Of a stretch of DNA of 64,000 nt, positions 56,131-57,102 are shown piece after piece. A program made the translations under genes and the position numbers. This DNA is from Heteronotia binoei (lineage: Eukaryota): assembly GCF_032191835.1 (NCBI RefSeq), contig NC_083237.1, positions 17,422,001-17,486,000 on the forward strand. Reading direction: 5' to 3'. The first letter of the stretch is position 1. Every line of letters starts with the position of its first letter. Under the pieces are notes generated by a model that made no database searches, was not told the origin of the DNA, and saw only the letters and a program-made list of their open reading frames with translations.

Positions 56131-57102
56131 ATGGTTCTGAGCAAGAAAATTCCTGACATCCACATTTTCAGCACCAGAGCCGGAGACGTGGCCATTCGCC
56201 CTGACCTGAACTGTTACCTCCTCCTGCCCAATATACCAACCTCCCCCTGCGCCGAGCTACGGCCCCTGCACCCTACTGTGCATGGCGGCAAACACTACTT
56301 CAGCTCCCGTTGGCATGACTCTGTCTACGTCATCATGGGCAACAAATTCACAGAGGCCCAAGACCTCAGTGTCGGGTCCACCAGCCAGGTCCGTGGCCTC
56401 CACCCAAGCTGCTGTGGGGGGCAACATTACTTTGTCGTCTCTGGCGGCTTCGTCATCATTCTGAGCCAGGGCACTTCGACAGCAGTGAAGGACTTGGCCA
56501 CGGGAGAACCAGTTCCTGGCCTGTATCCGGGACACCAGTGGTCCACGGAGAAAGTGGGAAGCATCCGTAGCTATCTCTACTGGCACCTGTGGGATAACTT
56601 CAGTGGAAGTTTCTTCACGTTACACCCCAATATCCTCAGCTTTCTGCCCGGGGGTCTCGGCCTCACCAAGGGGCCTGCATTTGGGGCTTGGAAACTGTTA
56701 ACAACCCTCCACAACTACTCTGACATCCCCGTCGCCAAGTCACACAGACTGTTCCGGAAGGTGGGCTACACTAAGGAGAAGTTGGCTGACGTTGGAAATG
56801 GCTGGTCAGCATCTCTGCCCAATTCTCCTGAGCCAAGCTGCGTCATTGTGGAACTAGCCAAGGCCCAGTTTGCGCTACCAACTCAGTATGGAGGGATGGG
56901 CCTTGACACAGAACAAGAGGAATGGGAAGAGGTCCATGAGGAAGAGAAGATCCTAGAAGCCGCACTGCAACCTAATGAGGTGGCCTACGCATGGCAGTAC
57001 CAACTAGGCCTCGGCAAAGAAGCCATTTTGTTTTGCAGAGAAATTAAGGTCACCAGCAGTTCTGACCCACCCTACGAGATCCCCCTGCCTCCTTCATCCT
57101 AA
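56131..57102 (+). CDS. Uncharacterised 323-aa protein with N-terminal LHPxxxGGxHY repeats and a beta-rich C-terminal domain (candidate lectin-like plus aerolysin-type fold)
   Basis: Intact ORF in non-repetitive sequence; strong acceptor (long pyrimidine tract, CCCCAG at 56111-56116); Kozak GCAGTGATGG at 56131 (alternative ATG at 56089); AATAAA at 57406; N-terminus aligns with the paralogue at 63757. The fold assignment is inference. Confidence 0.8.
   Translation: MVLSKKIPDIHIFSTRAGDVAIRPDLNCYLLLPNIPTSPCAELRPLHPTVHGGKHYFSSRWHDSVYVIMGNKFTEAQDLSVGSTSQVRGLHPSCCGGQHYFVVSGGFVIILSQGTSTAVKDLATGEPVPGLYPGHQWSTEKVGSIRSYLYWHLWDNFSGSFFTLHPNILSFLPGGLGLTKGPAFGAWKLLTTLHNYSDIPVAKSHRLFRKVGYTKEKLADVGNGWSASLPNSPEPSCVIVELAKAQFALPTQYGGMGLDTEQEEWEEVHEEEKILEAALQPNEVAYAWQYQLGLGKEAILFCREIKVTSSSDPPYEIPLPPSS

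Follow-up and report, generated by a model that had tools for sequence, protein, structure and literature searches.

The window analysed here, a 64,000-nucleotide stretch of Heteronotia binoei DNA, carries an open reading frame for one protein (P0001) and the start of a tandem paralogue (P0024); the two are 39% identical and belong, respectively, to clades A and B of the family described below (Table 1). The P0001 frame runs without a break, as the initial annotation had it, and the sequence motifs reported there lie where they had been placed (12/12 of those checked), with repeat copies LHPTVHGGKHYF at 56266 and LHPSCCGGQHYF at 56398, an LYP echo at 56521, an LHPN echo at 56620, and the C-terminal motifs likewise in position. 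The 44-residue repeat exceeds chance expectation, the best off-diagonal self-comparison score being 65 against a mean of 29.1 (sd 4.1, maximum 46) in 300 shuffles. The N-terminus is without signal-peptide-like character, again in line with the earlier reading: over 12-residue stretches of the first 35 residues, hydropathy peaks at 0.83. Among named relatives, a leopard gecko protein comes closest (81% identity).

Table 1. Positions of the features of the P0001 gene, its predicted protein domains and the neighbouring paralogue, numbered from the first letter of the window.
Feature	Position	Strand	Basis
Upstream non-coding exon	53900..54037	+	Loose 5' ends of RNA contigs, runs X1 and X3
5' UTR intron, 2,079 nt, GT..AG, polypyrimidine tract	54038..56116	+	RNA contigs and sequence
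Single-exon coding sequence, 323 aa (P0001), clade-A member	56131..57102	+	Intact ORF; partly covered by RNA contigs
Predicted hemopexin-like four-blade beta-propeller, aa ~9-163	56155..56619	+	AF2 model, fold matches
Conserved helical linker with family FLPGG signature, aa 164-181	56620..56673	+	Invariant columns; helices in model
Predicted aerolysin-type five-strand module, aa ~182-320	56674..57090	+	Model strands, CEL-III match
Predicted stem/insertion hairpin, aa 225-253	56803..56889	+	Proline-interrupted in clade A
AATAAA, likely polyadenylation signal	57406..57411	+	Sequence; RNA contig over 57231-57408
Start of tandem clade-B paralogue (P0024, 337 aa)	63757..64000, continuing past window	+	Acceptor AG at 63749-63750

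The P0001 gene is expressed as a spliced transcript. Three RNA runs of one study contain the stretch, with contigs covering parts of the ORF at ~99% identity and at a low depth that is not quantitative; positions 56732-56964 are without contig cover, which in contigs cannot show absence. In two of the three runs a contig breaks off at 56114, its 22 or 35 loose 5' letters matching an exon whose last base, 54037, is followed by a GT donor, and a polypyrimidine tract and AG are located 14 nt upstream of the P0001 ATG. The description of the gene as intronless therefore holds for the coding part, a single exon, but not for the gene as a whole, in which the RNA contigs define a 5' UTR intron. An acceptor is found 6-14 nt before the ATG at 10/10 family loci of the genome. 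The start of the upstream exon at 53900 is arbitrary, its donor being at 54038; as no ATG occurs in 53900-54037 and an in-frame stop interrupts the spliced leader, this exon contributes no signal peptide.

Three near-identical copies of the upstream exon are present in the window (17967, 26387 and 54019), all inside tandem segmental duplications of arylamine N-acetyltransferase genes, and the copy nearest to the P0001 gene was assumed to be its own. Run X3's loose letters agree with the copies at 54019 and 17967; for X1 the copy at 26387 is better by a single base, a difference that could come from an allele or an error. The N-acetyltransferase duplications took in the upstream exon but left out the P0001 coding exon; its distal copies may be silent, may serve N-acetyltransferase genes or may take part in long-range splicing. 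The single-exon N-acetyltransferase genes themselves lie in tandem at 15268-16089, 21978-22862 and 50248-51135, with another at locus L018; PF00797 was confirmed for two, the surrounding duplications are 93-98% identical, and the copy at 15268 appears frameshifted near its start.

Homologue searches bore out the proposal of an unnamed family with paralogues, recovering 70 proteins with P0001, 353 with a canonical paralogue (of which the best 120 were examined) and 226 representatives at 50% identity with a profile. The proposal of a reptile cluster did not survive these searches: the family also occurs in fish, coelacanth, amphibians and bacteria, and restriction to reptiles holds just for its derived clades A and B. 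Named members come from sturgeon, gar, teleosts, coelacanth, frogs, salamanders, turtles, tuatara, lizards, snakes and alligators; no bird or mammal appears among the named rows of the matches listed, which is not proof of absence. Nearly all are labelled 'uncharacterized' or 'hypothetical', and the names 'Pannexin-2', 'PhnC 2', 'activin receptor' and 'DUF295 domain-containing' carried by some have no Pfam support. Two Microscillaceae genome loci (L019, L020) code for relatives whose N-termini resemble signal peptides; the L020 gene adjoins what we take, from its C-terminal pattern, to be an AraC-like regulator. In an unnamed relative, P0156, the propeller is joined to a Death domain in place of the pore module.

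All 10 family loci of the genome lie on contig C15, eight of them canonical loci 1.5-2.4 Mb downstream of the P0001 gene, one of which is split over two frames. Phylogenetic placement was based on one quick tree and one fast SH-aLRT tree. These trees and alignment A1 were built without P0015 and P0016, whose C-termini are aberrant, P0032, which shares its coding exon with P0031, the partial sequences P0066-68 and P0070, and L007/L011, a frameshifted locus of this genome. Clade A comprises 14 lizard rows and an alligator, clade B lizards, snakes, tuatara and one row with a turtle protein in its cluster; each has SH-aLRT values of 99-100, and the grouping of A with B has support of 82 in the quick tree and 100 in the fast SH-aLRT tree. 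Intact clade-A members occur in Anolis, Sceloporus, Pogona, Varanus, Elgaria and Alligator, the alligator model P0071 featuring duplicated propeller segments. NCBI models of Pogona LOC110091392 (P0013, P0032) present the A and B coding exons as isoforms with the same upstream sequence, which suggests alternative last exons; in the window, a GC-rich stretch at 58300-59700 with some RNA cover may be the clade-B gene's own promoter.

The N-terminal half had been proposed to be a lectin- or propeller-like domain, of which the propeller is upheld by the predicted model, its best matches being of hemopexin type. The AF2 full model of P0001 (pLDDT 85.6, pTM 0.81; a poor Atlas model, pTM 0.37, was set aside) matches hemopexin-type four-blade propellers over residues 6-174 via fold comparison, with Z 8.1-8.9 and rmsd 3.6-4.2, and propeller lectins rank lower (tachylectin-2, Z 6.7; tectonin-2, E 5e-3). 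Canonical members feature four sequence repeats in this domain. Hemopexin-like domains such as those of MMP, vitronectin and legume seed albumins resemble the predicted propeller in their four ~44-residue repeats as well as in the Z scores; they differ in identity (5-16%, with no Pfam hemopexin match), in having no pore-module fusion and, compared with clade A, in an unshortened blade 4. That blade spans 37 residues in clade A versus 47 in canonical members, and residues 143-157 of P0001, within it, have pLDDT under 50.

A C-terminal domain of aerolysin/ETX/Toxin_10 type, fused to the propeller, had also been anticipated, and both the predicted model and its fold matches back it. Residues 170-320 of P0001 match domain 3 of the sea-cucumber haemolytic lectin CEL-III (PDB 1vcl; Z 8.3, rmsd 3.2, 113 aligned), and monalysin follows with Z 5.8-6.0. 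The C-domain of a canonical member, L004, folded alone (pLDDT 81) and compared with 48,161 chains at a threshold of Z at least 2, yielded 23 rows, all with Z under 7; 21/23 are aerolysin-type or named putative pore proteins, the class of some being presumed, and of the remaining two one is uncertain and one unrelated. CEL-III again ranks first (Z 6.6), ahead of Cry78, monalysin, BinAB, Tpp80, Tpp49 and Cry35, with further matches to lysenin, CPE, epsilon toxin, parasporin-2, SaroL-1 and lamprey LIP. Foldseek returned no match below E 0.001 for this domain, the top rows being monalysin (1.5e-3) and lysenin (2e-3). As the single scores are middling, the case for the C-domain rests on the coherence of the match list.

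Aerolysin-type proteins are defined by a core of five strands, the second and third of which are separated by an insertion (PMC3110756, PMC5654971), and the predicted P0001 and L004 models have this arrangement, with strands at residues 183-194, 201-213, 269-279, 284-294 and 297-308 in P0001. The insertion, or stem, is predicted to be helical in the monomer, like that of CEL-III before its described switch from helix to strand (PMC7914777); a helical stem insertion has also been described for CPE and HA3 (PMC5654971). A complex prediction pairing the canonical paralogue L005 with P0001, run without alignments and with an uncertain partner fold, scored 0.00 and carries no weight in either direction.

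Pfam scans found no family at cut-off in P0001, and in 63 aligned members and 64 further proteins the domains of the family itself reached no cut-off either; below cut-off, ETX_MTX2 appeared in 4/63 members (best E 0.017) and CEL_III_C in 1/63 (E 0.03) and in 1/64 further proteins (15.8 bits against a cut-off of 27). Weak matches to Polysacc_synt_C, PH_RASGAP and YEATS fell short of it as well and were discarded. Searches of PDB sequences returned nothing significant, the best Dln1 match having E 0.47, and the Atlas clusters for the family are unnamed. The absence of Pfam matches over cut-off, together with the middling Z scores and Foldseek E-values above 0.001, would suit a C-domain that is an elongated beta-sandwich merely resembling pore modules, with no member making pores. 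This we consider very unlikely, given the concentration of 21/23 structural matches in one functional class and the polar/non-polar alternation of canonical stems described below; Atlas features, as leads only, likewise point to ETX_MTX2/aerolysin clusters (0.78-0.80). A hemopexin-like propeller and an aerolysin/CEL-III-type module are thus predicted within one family, and we infer that canonical members are pore-formers with the propeller as their binding domain.

The initial annotation had seen in the proline-rich hairpin of P0001 a hint of pore loss, and prolines are indeed present in both predicted strands of all clade-A proteins, with hairpin boundaries inferred from topology (PMC3110756) rather than from a pore structure. 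After 90% dereplication, both strands contain proline in 16/16 clade-A and 3/23 clade-B proteins, 0/189 canonical proteins and 0/12 deep sequences, counts that concern related sequences and one or two events, not independent ones. One strand-2 proline is common to A (16/16) and B (22/23) and occurs in 1/189 canonical proteins; a single non-turn proline is found in 10/189 canonical proteins, and turn prolines, counted apart, in 9/189. Polar/non-polar alternation is described as the best-kept feature of aerolysin-type stems (PMC3110756). The 29-residue canonical stem alternates in this manner, with moments of 1.55 in strand 1 and 1.38 in strand 2 (33 rows), whereas the strand-1 moment falls to a mean of 0.65 in clade A (0.71 in P0001), with strand 2 kept at 1.29; an alternating, uninterrupted stem is found in canonical members and is missing from clade A, the window protein included. 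The divergent turtle model P0117, whose stem is without proline, falls inside A+B once the hairpin columns are removed, so that a single origin of the disarmed state of A and B, although likely, is not settled.

Clade-A proteins may nevertheless still make pores, through a kinked, shorter or re-registered barrel, alone or with the clade-B neighbour. The stem keeps its 29-residue length, its strand-2 alternation and the flanking W and YGG motifs; aerolysin, which itself has a conserved proline at the hairpin turn, tolerates turn prolines (PMC5654971); and A and B are adjacent in several lizards (consecutive locus tags, and one shared locus in Pogona). We regard this alternative as unlikely, however, since no canonical (0/189) or deep (0/12) protein has prolines in both strands, the Ser/Thr content of the post-stem strand drops from 0.23 to 0.10 in clade A and, among the matches listed, snakes have rows for B only and alligators for A only.

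A further alternative is decay, the window copy being a degenerating or dispensable paralogue: the gecko model P0015 leaves its frame inside the hairpin, no snake clade-A row is found among the matches listed, and the RNA contig depth, although not quantitative, is low. Against this, orthologues of P0001 are intact and 62-86% identical over five lizard groups, with an alligator member in addition, and the gene yields a spliced transcript. Within lizard clade A, pairwise identity is 0.67 in the hairpin and 0.64-0.78 in the rest of the protein; the hairpin is as conserved as its surroundings and is therefore fixed, not decaying. Decay is accordingly the least credible of the explanations weighed here, with hardly any probability left to it.

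The reading we favour, with moderate confidence, is that the clade-A copy is a non-lytic 'pseudo-pore' protein, in which the propeller would bind a target and no membrane barrel would form. Canonical members would bind a surface through the propeller and then oligomerise, their helical stem refolding into an amphipathic beta-barrel as described for CEL-III and CPE. Clade A would have arisen by duplication before the lizard-crocodilian split, its stem gaining prolines in both membrane strands and losing first-strand alternation, with the pore module retained as a scaffold for folding or oligomerisation. Blade 4 appears to have been remodelled in clade A, and the ligand has probably changed with it. 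Without a signal peptide, the protein would work in the cytosol or after non-classical release.

A non-lytic protein might alternatively act as a negative regulator that joins or crosslinks canonical oligomers and blocks the pore, the way BmALP3 acts on betagamma-CAT. In this precedent, BmALP3 has no pore capacity and inhibits BmALP1 by its C-terminal cysteine (PMC7995273, PMC10206775); a C-terminal cysteine (C302) is found in every scored member of the three clades, and the eight canonical loci share a contig with the P0001 gene. The canonical squamates in the best 120 of 353 matches comprise 18 named rows, all from geckos, skinks or lacertoids, with none from iguanians, anguimorphs or snakes and no crocodilian canonical member among these matches, yet A or B persists in those groups. 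Because clade A persists where no canonical member is found among the matches listed, an inhibitory role becomes less likely, and we judge it improbable.

A broader reading of the pseudo-pore protein, which we put forward tentatively, is that an ancient family of hemopexin-propeller pore-formers, shared with marine Bacteroidota, would have given reptiles a conserved disarmed pair, A and B, with a new job independent of pores; in iguanians, anguimorphs, snakes and crocodilians this job would have persisted longer than the active genes. The accompanying expansion of the ancient family in fish, amphibians, turtles and some lizards is proposed with the same reserve.

Several known systems approach this architecture from different sides. 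CEL-III, the best C-domain fold match, binds through N-terminal beta-trefoil lectin domains, whereas the N-domain of the family models as a hemopexin-like propeller; the match is confined to the C-domain, at 10% identity, and the clade-A stem is proline-interrupted. The natterin N-domain is DM9. Vertebrate aerolysin-like proteins (Dln1/jacalin type, natterins, lamprey LIP, betagamma-CAT/BmALP1 and ep37) likewise place a binding domain before an aerolysin-type module and have undergone tandem expansion in fish and amphibians, but their N-domains are of other kinds, namely jacalin or betagamma-crystallin in Dln1 and betagamma-CAT (PMC7995273, PMC10206775), and they have no significant sequence similarity to the family. 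Fold matches to them are weak (LIP, Z 3.3; the Bombina aerolysin-like protein 6lhz, Z 3.2; Dln1), and assignment of P0001 as a natterin, Dln1 or betagamma-CAT homologue was rejected on its N-domain, which models as a propeller with best matches of hemopexin type.

HA3/HA70 of the botulinum complex has a non-lytic scaffold role. Its architecture is described as aerolysin-type (PMC5654971), and BmALP3 similarly combines an aerolysin-type fold with inhibition instead of pore formation (PMC7995273); BmALP3 differs in acting by cysteine redox exchange, and, compared with both, clade A keeps a full propeller and is itself maintained in lizards and an alligator. No description of the family, including its domain combination and locus and accession identifiers, was found in the literature searched, most subscription papers lying outside that search. 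A 2022 structure screen lists an uncharacterised 334-residue zebrafish protein, A0A0G2KSF3, with Z 5.5 to monalysin (PMC8986115), which may be a family member. The architecture, within a superfamily already known, thus appears to be undescribed, and one reptile branch of the family is conserved and probably disarmed. The vertebrate aerolysin-type proteins known so far bind through jacalin, DM9 or crystallin domains, in place of which a hemopexin-like propeller is predicted here, and the multi-copy family, present in Xenopus, axolotl and carp, all of them accessible to laboratory work, would add a directly testable class of candidate vertebrate pore-formers. The reptile clades would provide a natural experiment in the conversion of a pore module to a non-lytic role, kept over deep time.

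The sole hint of a candidate immune role for the P0001 gene comes from its neighbourhood. An N4BP1/KHNYN-like gene lies ~20 kb beyond the window (L017:2408-4303, reverse strand), and a protein search placed NFATC4-like and RIPK3-like exons ~0.75 Mb upstream (C15:16.70-16.74 Mb); an RHD profile search of the genome gave no match on C15, where the protein search did, and a RHIM profile search of the genome matched nowhere, not even at its controls. In the turtle model P0117, NFATC4, a RHIM kinase and a member of the family are joined in one protein, which is probably a prediction artefact showing linkage. The arrangement on C15 presumably resembles the human 14q12 block. Elsewhere in the window, fragmented LTR-retroelement frames occupy 32895-37500, with RVT_1 and integrase zinc-binding matches, and a minisatellite with a 27-bp unit at 13856-14763 and 49383-49700 features long open frames on both strands.
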